DNA of 64,000 nt from Verrucomicrobiota bacterium (GCA_030605125.1 JAUWBD010000002.1:13179-77178); one strand, 5' to 3'. Counted from the first letter of the stretch, positions 57,338 to 64,000 are shown. Translations and numbers: made by a program. The notes: generated from the letters alone by a model not told the origin.

Positions 57338-57772
57338 ATGAAGACCTTACGCGCCCTCCTCGCCCTTTCCCTCGCCGCCTCCGCGGCCGTTTTTTTCGCC
57401 GGCTGCTCCACCGTGCCGCTCAGCAAGGACGGGGAGATGCAGGCGACCTTCGTGGCGGGCGAATTCCGCATGCTGGTCAACGCCGACGCCCCGCGCACCG
57501 CGGCGGCGACCTCGGAGGCGTTCAAGCAGATGGGGCTTTTCGAGGTGAAGCGCGAGCTGCGCACCTTCGACGCCGAGCTGGCGGCGCGCTCGCCGAAGGA
57601 CGAGAAGATCCGCGTCGTGATCAAGGAGATCAACAGCAAGCAGACCGAGCTGCGCATCCGGGTGGACGTGGTCGGCGACCGGAATTTTTCACGCAAGCTG
57701 TATGAGCGCATCGAGGCCAACCTCGGCGCCGCCGGCACCGGCCAGGCCCGCGCCGGCATGAGCGGCTGGTGA
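57338..57772 (+). CDS. DUF3568-like lipoprotein
   Basis: Lipobox FAGC; KIRVVIKEINSKQTELRIRVDVVGDRNFSRKLYERI. Confidence 0.7.
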   Translation: MKTLRALLALSLAASAAVFFAGCSTVPLSKDGEMQATFVAGEFRMLVNADAPRTAAATSEAFKQMGLFEVKRELRTFDAELAARSPKDEKIRVVIKEINSKQTELRIRVDVVGDRNFSRKLYERIEANLGAAGTGQARAGMSGW

Positions 57773-57818
57773 GGCGGCCGGGCGGTTCCATCCAACCCGG
57801 GATTCGCAAGCGAACGCC

Positions 57819-59009
57819 CTACGCCGCCTCCGCCCGCGCCAACTTTATCCCCTGCTTCGCCGCCCAGAGCGTGAGGTCGCGCTTCGACAGCGCCGCCGCG
57901 ATCAGGTCGGGGAACTTGTCCGGCGTGCAGGCAAACACCGGCACGCCCAGCGCCGCAAAGGCCGCCGCGTTTCGCGGATCGAAGGCCGGCTGCCCGTCGT
58001 CGCTCAGCGCGAGGAGCGCGATCAAGCGCACGCCCGCCGTCACCAAACGCGCCGCCGTCTTCAACATCTGCCCCACGTTGCCGCCTTCGTAGAGGTCGCT
58101 CACCAGCACCATCACCGTGTCCGCCGGGCGCGTCACCAGCCCTTCGCAATACACCAGCGCGCGGTGAATGTCGGTGCCGCCGCCGAGCTGCGCGCCAAAG
58201 AGCAAATCCACCGGATCGCGCAAATCCTGCGTGAGATCCACCACCGCAGTGTCAAAGACCACCATGCGCGTGCTCACCGCCGGCAGCGTCGCCAGCACCG
58301 CACCGAAGATCGACGAATACACCACCGAGGTCGCCATCGATCCGCTCTGGTCCACGCACAGGATCACGTCGCGCAGCGAGGCGCGCCGCCGCCCGTAGCC
58401 CACGAGCTTTTCCGGGATGATCGTGCGCTGCTCCGGCTGGTAATGCTTCAGGTTGGCGCGCACCGTCCGCGCCCAATCGATCTCGCGCAGCCGCGGCCGG
58501 TTGTTGCGGATGCTCCGCGCCAACGCGCCGCCCACCGCCTGCCGCATCGGCTCGGCCAGCCGTCGCAAAATCTCGTCCACGATGCGCTGCACCACCTGCC
58601 GCGCCGTCTCGCGCGTCTTCTCTGGCATGGCGCGATTCAGGGAGATCAGCGTCGCCGCCAAGTGCACGTCGGGCTCCGCCGCCGAGAGCAGCTCGGGCTC
58701 GAGCAGCAACTGCTTCAGGTCGAGCCGCTCCATCGCGTCGCGCTGCATCACACTCACCACGCTGGTCGGGAAAAACTTTCGGATGTCGCCCAGCCAGCGC
58801 GCCACTTTAGGAGCCGAGCCGCCCAGCCCGCCCTTGCGCGACTGCGGTTTGCCATCCTGCTCCGGCCCCGTGCCCTCCTGGTAAAGCGCCGCCAGGGCCT
58901 CGTCCATGCGCACGTCGTCGCCGCTCAGGTCCGCGCCGAGCGGCTCCGCGCTCTCCTGCCCCAGCACCAAGCGCCAACGCCGCGCCTCCTCCGTCTTCGT
59001 CGTGCTCAT
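57819..59009 (-). CDS. vWA (CoxE/YehP-like) domain protein
   Basis: RRWRLVLG, VARWLGDIR, MIDAS motif VDQSGSM, GGGTDI, VSDLYEG; ATGA overlap with the upstream gene. Confidence 0.9.
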   Translation of the reverse strand: MSTTKTEEARRWRLVLGQESAEPLGADLSGDDVRMDEALAALYQEGTGPEQDGKPQSRKGGLGGSAPKVARWLGDIRKFFPTSVVSVMQRDAMERLDLKQLLLEPELLSAAEPDVHLAATLISLNRAMPEKTRETARQVVQRIVDEILRRLAEPMRQAVGGALARSIRNNRPRLREIDWARTVRANLKHYQPEQRTIIPEKLVGYGRRRASLRDVILCVDQSGSMATSVVYSSIFGAVLATLPAVSTRMVVFDTAVVDLTQDLRDPVDLLFGAQLGGGTDIHRALVYCEGLVTRPADTVMVLVSDLYEGGNVGQMLKTAARLVTAGVRLIALLALSDDGQPAFDPRNAAAFAALGVPVFACTPDKFPDLIAAALSKRDLTLWAAKQGIKLARAEAA

Positions 59010-61339
59010 GATTTTATTCCCTCCCCGAGCCCCAGCAGGCTCGCCGTCAAGGCGACCGCCGGCCGGGCCCGCGCCTCGTCGATCTCCCAAAGCTCCGCCC
59101 CGCCGCCCGAGCCGCGTCCGCCCCCGGCACCGCTACCTGCACCGCCGCTTGCCAAGCCGGCCACCGCCTGCCCGATCTGCCCGCGCTCCGGCGGTGTGAA
59201 CCGCGCGAAGGTGCGCCGCACCAAGGGCAGCACGGCCTGAAACTGCTCCGCCGGCAGCCCCGCCAGCCACGCGTGGAGCAGCGCAAGCAAAGCCTGGTCG
59301 TGCACCAGCACCGCGCCGCCGCCGCTCAAAAAACCCTCCAGCCACGCCGCCGCCGCTTCCGCGCTCTGCCCGGCGGAGAGCGCGTGGCTGAGCCGCGTGG
59401 CGACGCCCTCCGCGTCGAGCGCGTCCGCATCGCGTTGCATGCGCGTGCAGAGCCCGCGCAGCGCCGGGTGTGCCGAGCCGTGGTCCATGATGCGCCGCGT
59501 CGTCGCCCGCCACTCCTCGGCCAGCGGCTCGTCCTCGATCAGCCGGATTGCTTCGTCGTGGCCCGACACGAGCTGCGCCAGCTCCGCCGCCGCCTCCTCC
59601 GCCAGCCCCGACACCGCGCCGGGCAACTCGACGTGCGCCCGCCGCGCGAGGCCGATCACGATGCCGCGCACCGCCGCGAGGTCGGTCTGCCTCACGCTGC
59701 CGTAGCGCGCCAAGCGCGCGAGCGGCGCGATGGCGCGCAAGAGGCCCGGGGGATCGTCCACCGAGGCCGCCGCCGCCTGCACCCGCGCGAGGATCGCCTC
59801 GCCCGCCGCCGGCAGGTCCGCGAGCAGGGCCAGCTCGAGCAGCTCGACCAGCGTTTCCAAGGGCGGATTGCCCTCCGCGGTCCGCGCCAGACGCGTCTCC
59901 GCGGCGGTCGCGAGGGTGTTGCCAAACGACGAGGCGTCGATGATCGCGAGCACCAGCTCCGCCGCCCATTGCAGCGACCAATGCTCGCGGAAAGTCCCCT
60001 TGCCGCCGCGCGCCTGCACCGGCTTGCCCCAGTGCACACGCACCGCCCGCAGCCGGTGCAAAAACACGCTGCGCGCGCGTCCGCTCGGCTCGCGCAGGTC
60101 CAGCTCGAGCGGCGTCACGCTCGCCGTCGGCTTGAGGCGCAGCGACTTTTGCTGGCGCTCGATGTCGTCCTGCAAAGGCAGCTTCGCCAGACCCTCGGGC
60201 AACTCGCCGAGGCGCTCGCCGACCAGCAGCGGACGCTTCAGCAAGCCGAGCAGCGCCCCGTCGCCCTCGCAAAACACCGCGCGCATCGCCTCCAGCGTCT
60301 CGGACAGCCCCGCCGCCGGCCGCCCGCGCAAGCCCGCCAGCGCCTGCGCGAGACGCACCGCCTCGATCACGCTCGCGCTCGAGGCCGACACATCGTGACC
60401 GCGCAGCACCCGCGCCGCCTTCGTGATCCAGCGCGCCGTCGGATCGCCTTCGCCCATCGCGCCGCGCTCCCAGAGGTGTTCATACCAACCGGGCGACTCC
60501 ACGCCCGCCCCGTAGCCGCTGGCCGAGGTGAGGCGCTCGAATGTCCAGGGCGCCCAGGTGGCGCGCACCTTCGCCTTCGGCATACCCTTGAGCAAAGCCG
60601 CGTCGTCCGCCGCCTTCACGGCCTGCCGCAGCGCAGGCAAATGCCAGGCACCGCAGACCACCGCGATGTTCTGCGCCCCCGCTTTCTCCGCCTCGCGGAT
60701 GCCGCGCCGCATCCAGGCCTCGCGCCGTAGATCGTGCTCGGTCTCGGGCAGGGCCAGCTCGGTTCGCAGCGCGGTGAGCGCCTCACCGACCGCCGCGAAA
60801 AGGTCACCGTCGTGCGCGCGCTCCTCGACGCGATCGTTCCACCAACGCTCGCCGTCGCTGTAGCCGTCGGCCTTCGCCAGCCAGCTCAGCGGATCGCCGC
60901 GCGCGGCCTCCGGCTGCGGCTCCGGCTCGGGCTCGGACGCCGACGCCGCGCTCTTTTCTTGCCCCTCCTCCGCCTGCTCGGCCGCCGCCGCGGCGGCGCG
61001 CTCCGCCTCCTCCTTCGCCGCGTCGATCGCGAAGCGGTGCGTGCAGGGCAGATCGAGGAAGCGCACCGGCACGCCCTGCGCCGTGGCCCAGCGCAGCGCC
61101 TGCCACTCGGGGGAAAACTCCGCGAAGGGGTAAAACGCCGCGCGCCGCGGATTCTCCACATCGTAGATCAAGATCGCCACCGGCGGCTTGAGCGCGGGGT
61201 CCCGCACCGCGTCGATCAACTCGTCCGCGTCCGGCGGACCCTCGATCAACACCAGGTCCGGCCGAAGCGCGTCGAGCGCCTTCACCAGGCTGCGCGCGCA
61301 GCCGGGCCCGTGGTGACGAATGCCGAAGATCGTCGTCAT
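59006..61339 (-). CDS. DUF5682 (YehM-like) protein
   Basis: FGIRHHGPG, LIEGP, YPFAEFSPEWQA, REAWM, VCGAWH, TWAPWT..SGYGAG. Confidence 0.85.
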   Translation of the reverse strand: MTTIFGIRHHGPGCARSLVKALDALRPDLVLIEGPPDADELIDAVRDPALKPPVAILIYDVENPRRAAFYPFAEFSPEWQALRWATAQGVPVRFLDLPCTHRFAIDAAKEEAERAAAAAAEQAEEGQEKSAASASEPEPEPQPEAARGDPLSWLAKADGYSDGERWWNDRVEERAHDGDLFAAVGEALTALRTELALPETEHDLRREAWMRRGIREAEKAGAQNIAVVCGAWHLPALRQAVKAADDAALLKGMPKAKVRATWAPWTFERLTSASGYGAGVESPGWYEHLWERGAMGEGDPTARWITKAARVLRGHDVSASSASVIEAVRLAQALAGLRGRPAAGLSETLEAMRAVFCEGDGALLGLLKRPLLVGERLGELPEGLAKLPLQDDIERQQKSLRLKPTASVTPLELDLREPSGRARSVFLHRLRAVRVHWGKPVQARGGKGTFREHWSLQWAAELVLAIIDASSFGNTLATAAETRLARTAEGNPPLETLVELLELALLADLPAAGEAILARVQAAAASVDDPPGLLRAIAPLARLARYGSVRQTDLAAVRGIVIGLARRAHVELPGAVSGLAEEAAAELAQLVSGHDEAIRLIEDEPLAEEWRATTRRIMDHGSAHPALRGLCTRMQRDADALDAEGVATRLSHALSAGQSAEAAAAWLEGFLSGGGAVLVHDQALLALLHAWLAGLPAEQFQAVLPLVRRTFARFTPPERGQIGQAVAGLASGGAGSGAGGGRGSGGGAELWEIDEARARPAVALTASLLGLGEGIKS

Positions 61340-64000
61340 GCCTGGTCGTTGTCCGCGTCCGCCCCGGCTTCGCCGCCAGCCGCCGCGCCGATGCCCGCGA
61401 TGGCCTTCAGGTCGCCCACCGTCTCCGAATACACCACCGGCGGCACCACGCCAAAGGCCAGCACCCGCGCATCGTTGGCCTGCGGATCATCATAGACGTA
61501 GCTGCCGCGCTTAACGCTGTCGGCGCGCGTGAAACGCGCCACGCCGAGCGTGATCGTCTCCATCGGATCGATGCCGATGTAGAGCCCGTCGATCTCGAGC
61601 GACACCTCCACGCCCGCGCCCGGGAAGGCCTTGAAGTAGCCCGCCACGCCGCCCGCATCCACGACCGAGCCGCGCATCCAGCCGCGCCGCTCCGCCCGCG
61701 AGCGAAAGGTGCCGGCGCCGAGTGTCTTGTCCTGCGCCACCGCGAGCTCGCGCCGGTTGGCGTGCAGCGGATCGAGCCGCTCCACCGGACGCTCGAGCTG
61801 GGGAAAAGGCGCCTCGACCTTGAACCGCGCGAGGTGCGCGCGCCACGCCGCGATGGCGTCCGCCGTGAGTTCCAGAGGATGCACCATGCCGATCTGCGTC
61901 TCCGCCTCGGGCAACTCCTCCAGGCCGCCCGCCGCGTCGGCGAGCAGACCGTTCGGGTAGCGGCGGAAACAACGCAGCAGCGCGCCGTCCGCGCCATAGA
62001 TGCCCCAGACCAGCCGGGTGGCGAAAGCGCGCAGCACCGGGTGCCGCTCGTAGAGTTCGCGCCAGCGGGCCACCGGCCAGCGCCGCTGCCGCACGAGCGC
62101 CAACTCGAGCCGCGCGGTCTGGCCCTTGGCCGCCTCGCGCAGGAGTTTGCCCAGCTCCTTCACCTCGGCCCTGAGCGCGTCGGGCGCGGAGGCGGGCAAG
62201 CCCTTCAGTGTCTTGTCGGATTCCGGGTCGGACCACGCGAGCTTCAGGTCCACGCCCAGCTCGGCGCGGGCCGCGCCGCCCTCCCAGGTGAAGTCGCGCA
62301 GGCCGTCCTCGTTGAAGCCGAAGCCCGGCACCACCAGATCGCCGAGCTCATCCGCCGAAAGCCCGCGCGCGTCCGCCGCGGCCTGGAACGCCTGCGCGGC
62401 GGCCGCCCCGATGTTGCGCTGCTTGCTGCGATAGCGCGTGGCGAGGGCGTCAAGAAACATCAGCGCCTCGTCGCTGCCTTGGAGCGCGATGGCCTGCGCG
62501 GCGTATTCGGCGAGCTTGCCACGCCCCTTCTCGCACCACTTCGGTATCCAAGAATTAATGACAGGCAGGATACGCGTGTCACCCAGCGCCCCCGCGAGCA
62601 CGAGCGCCCAGCGGTCCTTCGCCTCCTGCGGCGAGGCGAGCCAGGCCTCCAGCAGGGCAAGCGCGAAGTCACCCGAGCGCGCGCGGTCGAGCTGGGCCAG
62701 CAAAGGCGCGATCTCGGGCGTCACTGTGACCGCTTTGTGGGCCGCTTGAGTGGCGAGGAGGTGGGTGACGAGCAGTTGACCGAACTCGCGCCCGTCAGGT
62801 GTGACGAGCTTTGGCAACGAGGATGGTTCGGCCCAATCCGCCGGTGCCTTCGGGGCGCGCTTCCGTCGAGCGAGTTCCGATTCCCACGACGAAACATCCC
62901 GTTGCGATTCAGTCGCGCGCTCAGACATGACGTCGGCGGGCGTTGAGCAGCCTAGTTTTTCCAAAGCGCGCCGCAGCTCGGCGCGGACCGCCGCGGACTT
63001 CTCCGTCGCCAGCGCCTCCTGCAGGAGCGGTGCCAGAGCAGCCTCTTCCAACGCGGCGAGAAGGGCTGCACCGCCAATCCGCTGGTCGGCCCGCTTGGCT
63101 CGCACGAACTCTGCTCCCAGCCTCCGCACGTCATCCGGATCCGACTTCGACAGGACTTCCACGGCGACCTCGCGCAACTGCTTCGAATTGGAACCCAAAA
63201 GTTCGCGCCACTCCTCGCAGAGGAGCGCGGCATGGCGTTCCGCCACTTTCCTCAGGACCTCGACCTTTCTCTCAACCACATTGATCGAGCGGAGGATTCG
63301 CCTCAACGCCTCGATCCGAGGCGCGGACATATCGTCTTTCGCTAGATCAACAAGCGCGAAGACGGCAGCCCCCTTGGCGTTGGCATCCGAACACTCCACG
63401 AGTGCGTCCACCACGGCAGCCCCCGCCGAATCGAGCCGTTCAAACGCCAGCTTATAAGCTTCCCGATACTCCCGCCCCATGGTCACACCGTAGAGCGTGA
63501 GAAAACCTCCACGCAGCACCGCCGGCAGGACCTCAAGCGCAAGGTCCGGAGCGCCCTCGACCAAGCGAAGCAAAATGTCGGCATAGGCCGCCACCGCGGG
63601 CTCACGTGCGCTCCGCAGAAACAAGTCTCGGTGACGATCCGGCCGGCGTCGCATCAACTCCTCGAGAACCGAGGCTCGCTGCACGGAGTCCGCAGGAGAA
63701 CAGACAAATCCCTCCGCGACCGGATCAAACTCACTGGTGCGAACGAGCAAAGCGCTCACCTCTTCGACCGACGGCAGTTTCTTCGACTGCGGCGGATAGT
63801 TGATGTGCAGCCAGTCTCGGACGATCTCGGGCCGCTCCGCGGCAAGTGCGCGCAAAAGGCAGACGCCGCCCCGCCCCAGCGCTTTCGTGAGTTCTGCCTG
63901 GGGCAAGTCCAGGATGTGACGTTCCCAACGCAGAACGACTTTGTCCTCCTCTGCTTCGTCATTCCATGCCGAGAACGAGGATCCCCACAGCCCGGATTCG
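61336..64000 (-). CDS. DUF4132 (YehI-like) protein, 5'-truncated (frame open to the window edge)
   Basis: C-terminal DELGDLVVPGFG, RLELALVRQRRW, HPVLRAFATRLVWG, IGMVHPLEL, PFPQLER, VYSETVGDL; no stop codon in frame from 63906 to 64000. Confidence 0.85.
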   Translation of the reverse strand, partial: ESGLWGSSFSAWNDEAEEDKVVLRWERHILDLPQAELTKALGRGGVCLLRALAAERPEIVRDWLHINYPPQSKKLPSVEEVSALLVRTSEFDPVAEGFVCSPADSVQRASVLEELMRRRPDRHRDLFLRSAREPAVAAYADILLRLVEGAPDLALEVLPAVLRGGFLTLYGVTMGREYREAYKLAFERLDSAGAAVVDALVECSDANAKGAAVFALVDLAKDDMSAPRIEALRRILRSINVVERKVEVLRKVAERHAALLCEEWRELLGSNSKQLREVAVEVLSKSDPDDVRRLGAEFVRAKRADQRIGGAALLAALEEAALAPLLQEALATEKSAAVRAELRRALEKLGCSTPADVMSERATESQRDVSSWESELARRKRAPKAPADWAEPSSLPKLVTPDGREFGQLLVTHLLATQAAHKAVTVTPEIAPLLAQLDRARSGDFALALLEAWLASPQEAKDRWALVLAGALGDTRILPVINSWIPKWCEKGRGKLAEYAAQAIALQGSDEALMFLDALATRYRSKQRNIGAAAAQAFQAAADARGLSADELGDLVVPGFGFNEDGLRDFTWEGGAARAELGVDLKLAWSDPESDKTLKGLPASAPDALRAEVKELGKLLREAAKGQTARLELALVRQRRWPVARWRELYERHPVLRAFATRLVWGIYGADGALLRCFRRYPNGLLADAAGGLEELPEAETQIGMVHPLELTADAIAAWRAHLARFKVEAPFPQLERPVERLDPLHANRRELAVAQDKTLGAGTFRSRAERRGWMRGSVVDAGGVAGYFKAFPGAGVEVSLEIDGLYIGIDPMETITLGVARFTRADSVKRGSYVYDDPQANDARVLAFGVVPPVVYSETVGDLKAIAGIGAAAGGEAGADADNDQA

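Follow-up and report, generated by a model that had tools for sequence, protein, structure and literature searches.

A ddrTUVWX-type MoxR-vWA operon with a DUF4132 gene between MoxR and DUF5682 in a verrucomicrobial bacterium

Introduction

What kind of machine is encoded by an operon in which a gene for a von Willebrand factor A (vWA) protein is chained to genes for large proteins of the DUF5682 and DUF4132 families? The question is raised by one end of a 64,000-nucleotide stretch from a bacterium of the Verrucomicrobiota (GCA_030605125.1, JAUWBD010000002.1:13179-77178; contig C124:13179-77178 in our numbering), which we call the window. From position 57,819 to the end of the window, the minus strand carries the three genes. 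A first-pass annotation, made from the sequence alone, described them as an uncharacterised yeh-like operon in a non-canonical order and proposed a surveillance, defence or protein-remodelling machine.

Two clusters serve as references. The ddrTUVWX operon was defined in Deinococcus deserti, where it extends from Deide_18730 (SWIM) to Deide_18690 (VWA-CoxE) and responds to radiation in dependence on IrrE/DdrO (PMC5552922; PMC6300522). The second is the yeh cluster of Escherichia coli K-12, whose order, according to the record, is yehI, yehK, yehL, yehM, yehP, yehQ, with a fuller cluster starting at yehF-yehH(molR). In the literature searched, we found no functional study of DUF5682, DUF5691 or yehLMPQ. 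Here we report what the complete operon consists of, to which of the two clusters it belongs, how it is distributed and possibly regulated, and which biochemical activity its products may have.

Results

Six genes in one transcription unit

The genome is a 4.9-Mb assembly of 271 contigs, and the contig in question extends 8.3 kb past the end of the window. Pfam calls and reading into this part (L002, the stretch that includes these 8.3 kb; window coordinate = L002 coordinate + 54821) revealed an operon with the order, 5' to 3', SWIM, DUF5691, MoxR AAA+, DUF4132, DUF5682, vWA, all on the minus strand. The ATPase and SWIM genes, which had been expected to be either upstream or missing, are indeed upstream. 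The earlier description was nevertheless incomplete, as it lacked the sixth gene, DUF5691, which lies past the window end.

The SWIM zinc-finger gene (DdrT-like; L002 12221-13576; Pfam; CxCx7CxH) starts with GTG, a start codon conserved in the congener G020 and in Rariglobus. It is followed by the DUF5691 gene (DdrU-like; L002 10689-12224; Pfam, E 1.2e-96), which has a 65%-identical counterpart in Rariglobus hedericola, and by the gene for a MoxR-type AAA_5 ATPase (DdrV-like, YehL-type; L002 9604-10692; PF07728, E 3.8e-38). The DUF4132 gene (61336 to 64000 and beyond; PF13569, E 3.1e-34) has its 3' 887 codons inside the window, with the Pfam domain proper at 61678-62214 (residues 596-774 of the window-truncated translation). 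Its start is at L002 9583 or 9625, 404-446 nt past the window end, which gives a full-length product of approximately 1022-1036 aa. The last two genes encode the 777-aa DUF5682 protein (DdrW/YehM equivalent; 59006-61339; PF18934, E 1.4e-250, profile 3-727 of 727) and the 396-aa CoxE-like vWA protein (DdrX/YehP equivalent, ATG start; 57819-59009; PF05762 VWA_CoxE, E 5.7e-55).

Neighbouring genes overlap by ATGA at four of the five junctions (SWIM/DUF5691, DUF5691/MoxR, DUF4132/DUF5682 and DUF5682/vWA). The chaining of the three genes in the window had been noted before, and it was confirmed by Pfam calls and by reading both junctions directly: the DUF4132 stop overlaps the DUF5682 start at 61336-61339 (...gcATGAcg), and the DUF5682 stop overlaps the vWA start at 59006-59009 (...aatcATGAgc). 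Upstream of the SWIM gene, a terminator with a 14-bp stem (L002 13693-13663, minus strand) ends the preceding gene for a secreted protein; therefore, the six genes constitute a single unit, served by a promoter of its own. At the other end nothing follows the vWA gene, as had been stated: a convergent DUF3568 gene (57338-57772, plus strand) ends 46 nt from the vWA stop, and this spacer (57773-57818) marks the 3' end of the operon. The G+C content of the window is about 70%.

The operon is of the ddrTUVWX type

That the locus is a member of the ddrTUVWX/yeh family of MoxR-vWA operons is close to certain. Compared with ddrTUVWX of Deinococcus, the same gene families occur in the same order, with SWIM first and vWA last, and they are likewise tightly packed. 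The products share 71% (MoxR), 55% (vWA), 46% (DUF5682) and 35% (SWIM) identity with those of Deinococcus taeanensis (blastp); the link to DdrU consists in the shared DUF5691 family call, as blastp against D. taeanensis DdrU was not significant. D. taeanensis has been reported to carry ddrTUVWX with a gene for a 78-residue hypothetical protein between ddrV and ddrW (PMC9510100), and the locus on its plasmid p_TS293_3 is annotated as SWIM, DUF5691, AAA ATPase, 78-aa open reading frame (ORF), DUF5682, VWA. Both operons thus have an extra ORF at the MoxR/DUF5682 junction, but here it encodes a DUF4132 protein of about 1020 aa, whereas D. taeanensis has the 78-aa ORF and D. deserti has nothing at this position. 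The operon also differs from its Deinococcus counterparts in that no operator of the radiation/desiccation response motif (RDRM)/DdrO type or of the LexA type was found, and in its host, which the nearest named homologues place in the Opitutaceae, close to Rariglobus.

The similarity to the E. coli cluster is lower, with 41% identity to YehL, 36% to YehP, 29% to YehM and 29% to YehI. Both clusters include a SWIM protein, but in E. coli DUF4132 comes first and SWIM last, an order not matched here. Moreover, E. coli lacks DUF5691, whereas the verrucomicrobial operon lacks YehK and a WGR protein; YehQ and the SWIM protein align only weakly and at the N-terminus, and the E. coli-type sequence is very distant on the DUF5682 tree. 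DUF5691 might have been a DUF4132 protein that has diverged, or else the half that YehQ lacks; both possibilities were rejected (hhalign probability 0.4 and 0.1, respectively). We also rejected the view that the locus is a rearranged yeh cluster: order and identities fit the ddrTUVWX type, and the DUF4132 insert is the sole unusual feature. Thus, the order that the first-pass annotation had called non-canonical turned out to be the other standard arrangement, SWIM-DUF5691-AAA-DUF5682-vWA, which is a second established architecture of the family beside E. coli yeh, plus an insert. Judged by gene content and order, the locus is of the ddrTUVWX type, expanded by one DUF4132 gene between ddrV and ddrW.

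A single insertion of DUF4132

To place this arrangement among its relatives, species-representative genomes were scanned with the DUF5691 profile. At least 498 related loci were found, and the best 80 were analysed; their arrangements were derived from tblastn, a purpose-built DUF4132 hidden Markov model and a gene caller based on codon usage. In the dominant arrangement, SWIM-DUF5691-MoxR-DUF5682-vWA, MoxR lies right next to DUF5682, and a DUF4132 domain is lacking within 10 kb. This form was found in Streptosporangiales, Chloroflexota, Cyanobacteriota, Planctomycetota and some Verrucomicrobiota. All five genes, in this order and with no DUF4132, were detected in 46 of the best 80 loci; further loci are cut by a contig end or have their two halves oriented divergently. 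Loci of the Streptomyces type have the identical gene set, split divergently. Among the best 80 loci, DUF4132 was located between MoxR and DUF5682 only in verrucomicrobial ones. The number of copies at this junction varies: there is one in our genome, in G020 and in Rariglobus, two in the metagenome-assembled genomes of an Akkermansiaceae bacterium and of a Haloferula, and at least three in H. chungangensis.

In a maximum-likelihood tree of DUF5682, all DUF4132-bearing loci form one clade (99/99 support), and its sister is a clade of insertion-less Verrucomicrobia. Actinomycetota form a clade of their own, and Chloroflexota, Cyanobacteriota and Planctomycetota are grouped together in a third group. 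The single clade of DUF4132-bearing loci implies that the insertion between ddrV and ddrW was a single event, and we conclude from this tree that it arose once, within a verrucomicrobial sub-clade.

Extra genes recur at the MoxR/DUF5682 junction. Besides the 78-aa ORF of D. taeanensis (L121 9080-9316), we observed a 203-aa ORF in Hymenobacter radiodurans (L122 9115-9726), and in Verrucomicrobia one to three DUF4132 genes. Oscillochloris trichoides instead has a pair of genes, for products of 407 aa and 1150 aa, between DUF5682 and vWA (L033 15028-19713). Bacteroides thetaiotaomicron, a well-studied gut bacterium used as a control genome, gave matches for both DUF5682 and DUF5691, and a DUF5691-type system may be present there, in what would be a convenient model.

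DUF4132 is the variable member of the operon

The first-pass annotation had called DUF4132 a variable protein, and the comparison bears this out. It is the least conserved product of the operon, with 59% identity to G020 and 55% to Rariglobus, and its N-terminal 175-380 residues could not be aligned to more distant copies. The G+C content at third codon positions (GC3) is 0.69-0.77 in the first ~600 codons; it rises to 0.87-0.95 in the C-terminal domain of the same gene, and the neighbouring genes have 0.90-0.94. This low N-terminal GC3 (here window 62200-64000, L002 7780-9583) recurs in the G020 orthologue. Either faster evolution or an exchange of the N-terminal part by recombination could account for the pattern.

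Most DUF5691-type loci have no DUF4132 gene within 10 kb, and the one to three tandem copies are confined to one verrucomicrobial clade, as would suit a variable add-on. The combination seen here, a ddrTUVWX-type core with a gene of a family that otherwise accompanies yeh-type clusters, argues that DUF4132 is a modular adaptor and not a core subunit.

The core operon is linked to the DNA-damage response in other phyla

A DNA-damage response had not been considered in the first-pass annotation, although for the family it is indicated by the literature as well as by the comparison of loci. In D. deserti, ddrT-X are induced 5- to >10-fold by radiation via IrrE/DdrO (PMC5552922, Blanchard et al. 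2017). In addition, we scanned the upstream regions for the PafBC consensus, reported as tGTCgg-N10-tA-N3-T (PMC8635444). Of the 54 actinobacterial DUF5691-type loci, 44 (~80%) have a PafBC-type promoter (tGTC[AG]G-N10-TA-N3-T) ahead of SWIM, where about 0.45 of the 54 would be expected by chance (background 0.0084 per 250 nt); none of the 21 non-actinobacterial loci has one. In the actinobacterial loci the motif is mostly only 6-8 nt away from the start codon, a distance that implies transcripts without a leader. In the literature searched, we found no paper that reports the operon as a member of the PafBC regulon. Hence, two unrelated damage-response regulators, DdrO and PafBC, control the same core operon in other phyla, and the machine therefore probably handles a consequence of genotoxic stress. 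For the family such a role is supported; for this bacterium it is an extrapolation by analogy.

As for the regulation in this bacterium, the PafBC motif is not present at the operon. The verrucomicrobial LexA box, TGTTC-N4-GAACA, has one perfect site in the 4.9-Mb genome, ~20 nt upstream of lexA (C178:3226), which served as positive control. Only 20 sites with at most one mismatch exist in the genome, a scarcity that suggests a very small SOS regulon. SOS control of the operon was rejected, as it has no LexA box while the lexA control worked. A promoter-like CTTGATT element is located ~30 nt upstream of the SWIM start and is conserved in G020 and Rariglobus. A regulon sharing the conserved CCAAATYCTTGATTCCCG element was likewise rejected, because within this genome the element was found at the operon locus only.

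Upstream sequences of some other loci caught our attention. On the D. taeanensis plasmid (L121 5040-5070), a 17-bp imperfect palindrome, TTACGCCAGAAACATAA, precedes the ddrT (SWIM) start by ~25 nt and appears to resemble the Deinococcus RDRM operator. Three Anaerolineales loci (L020, L029 and L064) have TAGAACAWTTTTGCTA in common, ~60 nt upstream of the SWIM start. At a Leptolyngbya locus (L018), AGTACAAGCGTTCT is found ~10 nt upstream of the SWIM start and is presumably one mismatch away from the cyanobacterial LexA-box pattern.

A conserved MoxR motor and a vWA partner with an intact MIDAS

The MoxR protein is far less divergent than DUF4132, with 93% identity to G020, 91% to Rariglobus and 74% to Streptosporangium. 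The Walker A (GVPGTAK[ST]), Walker B (RVEELTR), sensor-1 and RRF motifs are retained throughout 78 loci, those of the E. coli type among them; in this operon they read GVPGTAKS, RVEELTR, ATAN and RRF, and the vWA gene is in the same operon. Across the 78 loci and in both architectures, Walker B of the YehL/DdrV-type follows R-[VF]-E-E-[LV]-T-R. The nearest solved relatives are the AAA domains of midasin (E 4e-16) and NorQ (E 3.5e-7). For the vWA protein, a sequence search of the PDB gave no match. Its metal ion-dependent adhesion site (MIDAS), described as intact before, is indeed complete: a motif scan of the translation located the DxSxS motif D220-Q-S222-G-S224 at 58338-58352, T279 (in GGGTD) at 58173-58175 and D305 (in VLVSD) at 58095-58097.

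An AAA_5 motor that is nearest to midasin AAA domains and NorQ and is partnered with a MIDAS-bearing vWA protein is what midasin/Rea1 and NorQ-NorD have in common with this operon. Unlike in midasin/Rea1, two different proteins provide the motor and the MIDAS domain here, as in NorQ/NorD. The operon differs from both systems by four further large partner proteins and by the lack of a ribosome-assembly or nitric oxide reductase context.

Characterised MoxR-vWA pairs (CoxD/E, NorQ/D, CbbQ/O, RavA/ViaA) are maturation or cofactor-insertion chaperones. The operon might, like them, encode a chaperone dedicated to one enzyme complex: MoxR and CoxE-type vWA genes occur together, NorQ is among the nearest solved relatives, and 74% identity of MoxR between phyla would fit a conserved mechanical job. 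However, no candidate client enzyme is conserved beside the operon in 36 loci from several phyla, and three to four extra large non-enzymatic partners (SWIM, DUF5691, DUF5682, DUF4132) are foreign to the known pairs. Regulation of the DdrO and PafBC type also indicates a stress module instead of a metabolic one. We therefore consider a dedicated maturation chaperone unlikely.

A probable TIKI/TraB-like fold in the N-terminal domain of DUF5682

An alignment-based AlphaFold model of DUF5682 (predicted local distance difference test (pLDDT) 87.7, predicted template modelling score (pTM) 0.81) consists of an N-terminal alpha/beta domain (residues 1 to ~275; 60515-61339), a small beta element and a C-terminal all-helical repeat domain (~residues 460-770 according to DSSP of the model; 59030-59962). 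The N-domain, which includes a long helical insert (~residues 99-220), reached a pLDDT of 84.6 when modelled alone. A fold search with the full-length model returned helical-repeat proteins only, none with E <=0.001, and a sequence search of the PDB gave no match. With the N-domain, the best Foldseek match in BFVD was a TraB family protein (E 2.7e-4, probability 1.0, template modelling (TM) score 0.32/0.42). The only whole-domain alignments in the PDB were with chains of Tetrahymena complex IV subunits (E 0.07-0.26) and ChaN (2g5g, E 2.5). Tetrahymena complex IV is reported to include a TraB-family subunit (PMC10060162), which may or may not be among the matched chains.

The motifs RHH, EGP and CGAWH, which had prompted the comparison with TraB/TIKI-type metalloproteases, are present and near-invariant in 33 orthologues from five phyla. 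In their alignments, R8, H9, H10, E33 (in LIEGP), E78, R206, E207, G230 and H233 are invariant or nearly so. Two GxxH motifs were recognised, G6-I-R8-H9-H10 (RHH; 61310-61324) and C229-G230-A-W-H233 (CGAWH; 60641-60655); they and the conserved glutamates are shared by the E. coli-type sequence. In the model, H9/H10, E33 and H233 directly follow beta strands, the RHH motif being situated at the C-terminal end of strand 2-7. E78 lies five residues past strand 63-72, and E207 is in a helix.

Proteins of the TIKI superfamily are characterised by a 2His/2Glu motif and a basic residue; some members are metal-independent, and inactive members such as PMT lack the set (PMC6254334). In its predicted beta-sheet core flanked by helices, its two GxxH motifs and its conserved glutamates and arginines, the DUF5682 N-domain recalls the TIKI/TraB/PrgY/ChaN/erythromycin-esterase superfamily. 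It differs by the helical insertion of ~120 residues and by the fusion to a helical-repeat domain of ~500 residues. The likeness to TraB/TIKI proposed in the first-pass annotation received support from structure prediction, where the best Foldseek match is a TraB family protein, whereas the sequence-level support is weak; the Pfam TraB model had no match in the relatives either. Overall, the resemblance of the N-domain is moderately supported, and the modelled domain appears to carry a conserved 2His/2Glu-like, putatively catalytic set. The lack of a metal site had been named among the findings that would refute the earlier proposal. It cannot serve as a refutation, because metal is dispensable for at least one endopeptidase of the TIKI superfamily (PMC6254334).

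The same data raise the possibility that the N-domain is non-catalytic, either a heme- or metal-binding (ChaN-like) domain or a structural TIKI fold, in a complex that only remodels or sequesters its targets. Heme-binding ChaN is among the whole-domain matches, some TIKI-fold proteins such as PMT are inactive, and in sequence DUF5682 has no significant likeness to the active TraB/TIKI proteins. Inactive members, however, are those without the 2His/2Glu set, whereas the two GxxH motifs and three glutamates of DUF5682 are invariant in the five phyla and in the E. coli type. We assign a low probability to a non-catalytic domain.

An accessory, mobile system without the surroundings of a defence island

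Within the genus, DUF5682 was present in 3 of 25 genomes, compared with none of 16 in the rest of the order, and only 4 of 401 Verrucomicrobiota genomes had DUF5691. Another genome of the genus (G014) carries an E. coli-type locus with WGR-DUF4132, MoxR and DUF5682; two architectures therefore coexist within one genus, and the same architecture was found in differing contexts. With MoxR as query, copies were detected on megaplasmids of Deinococcus, Hymenobacter, Rhizobium and Methylosinus; with DUF5691 as query against the plasmid collection, the sole match was a mislabelled chromosome. Synteny around the DUF3568 gene is not conserved in the genus, so that this gene gives no anchor for recognising a clean insertion or deletion of the operon. 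In Verrucomicrobiota the system is accessory and mobile.

Such a patchy spread, the two architectures, the varying contexts and the megaplasmid copies would also be expected of an anti-phage or conflict system in which a variable DUF4132 protein senses the invader and the MoxR-vWA-TIKI module acts as effector. DUF4132 evolves fastest, occurs in zero to three copies and is atypical in the GC3 of its N-terminal part; a system triggered by phages or prophages would also fit with induction by DNA damage. Yet the vWA, DUF5682 and DUF4132 proteins, the three that were tested, match no PADLOC model. Among 133 flanking proteins from 36 loci, transporters of the major facilitator superfamily, B12-binding proteins, coenzyme A ligases and alpha/beta hydrolases recur, and the few matches to defence models are mostly TnpB-like or housekeeping homologues. 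The neighbours in our genome are mutY, rnhC, a lipoprotein gene and mcsAB. Furthermore, operon synteny is conserved in Streptomyces and Streptosporangiales and the DUF5682 tree groups by phylum, unlike typical defence islands, and nothing in the operon is an obvious nuclease, NADase, pore or other toxic effector. The surveillance or defence function proposed earlier thus finds no match in the proteins tested and no echo in the metabolic and transport genes that flank the 36 loci, and we regard it as very doubtful.

Genes around the operon

Downstream of the operon, mutY and rnhC are the neighbours. Directly upstream (L002 13713-15314, minus strand), separated by the strong terminator, lies the gene for a 533-aa protein with a clear signal peptide and no Pfam match. 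Further upstream, a divergent pair (L002 15665-17343, plus strand) encodes an McsA-like zinc protein with UVR motif and an McsB-like ATP:guanido phosphotransferase, which is a protein arginine kinase. In NCBIfam, no model was matched by the vWA, DUF5682 or DUF4132 protein.

Discussion

The question raised at the outset can be answered at two levels. At the level of the locus, the operon represents the ddrTUVWX type with an additional DUF4132 gene. At the level of the machine, we lean, at slightly better than even chances, toward a midasin-like AAA+/MIDAS remodelling machine with a scaffold that bears a TIKI-type hydrolase and with a variable DUF4132 adaptor, probably related to stress or DNA damage. 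The MoxR ring and the MIDAS-bearing vWA protein would work as midasin or NorQ/NorD do. An acidic residue on a target protein would be held by the MIDAS site, and the target would then be pulled or remodelled at the expense of ATP. DUF5682 would be the large scaffold of the complex, whose N-terminal TIKI/TraB-type domain may cut or deacylate the engaged substrate via the 2His/2Glu-like set. The SWIM-DUF5691 pair could be a fixed targeting module, and DUF4132 an exchangeable, fast-evolving adaptor that widens or redirects the choice of targets. The data directly show which genes are present and in what order, their coupling, the intact ATPase and MIDAS motifs, the resemblance in fold and, elsewhere in the family, the regulation linked to damage; that the products associate, what they act on, whether they hydrolyse it and what they do for this organism we infer from the parts.

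Several observations weigh against this reading. The DNA-damage role in this bacterium is extrapolated from other phyla. On the operon's contig there is no TGTTC-N4-GAACA site with at most one mismatch anywhere, and the promoter-like CTTGATT element is unique to the operon locus in the genome. The fold matches of the DUF5682 N-domain in the PDB have E values of at least 0.07 and TM-scores of 0.26-0.34. The Pfam TraB model PF01963 has no match in this genome, and hhalign against the E. coli TraB-family protein YbaP pairs one motif only, CGAWH with VAVGALH (E 0.14). Finally, Walker B of MoxR has EE, conserved family-wide, in place of the canonical DE. Despite these points, the defence system, the maturation chaperone and the non-catalytic DUF5682 are less well supported than the AAA+/MIDAS remodelling machine.

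A bolder proposal takes the family as the bacterial counterpart of eukaryotic Cdc48/p97 plus SPRTN/Wss1, that is, as a damage-induced, midasin-like AAA+/MIDAS extractor combined with a TIKI-type protease. It would remove and degrade proteins that are stuck on DNA, for instance in DNA-protein crosslinks, as poisoned topoisomerases or in stalled complexes; SWIM-DUF5691 would serve as nucleic-acid anchor, and DUF4132 or WGR-DUF4132 as interchangeable adaptors for lesions or targets. In the verrucomicrobial clade, one to three such adaptors would have been gained. We consider this proposal improbable.

The yehLMPQ/ddrTUVWX family is widespread and includes a cluster of E. coli K-12. As the locus described here demonstrates, its two architectures can mix: a ddrTUVWX-type core is combined with a DUF4132 gene, of a family that is otherwise seen with yeh-type clusters. 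Taken together, the identity with the Deinococcus operon, the PafBC promoters and the TIKI/TraB-like domain offer defined mutants, inducing conditions and a candidate chemistry to try.

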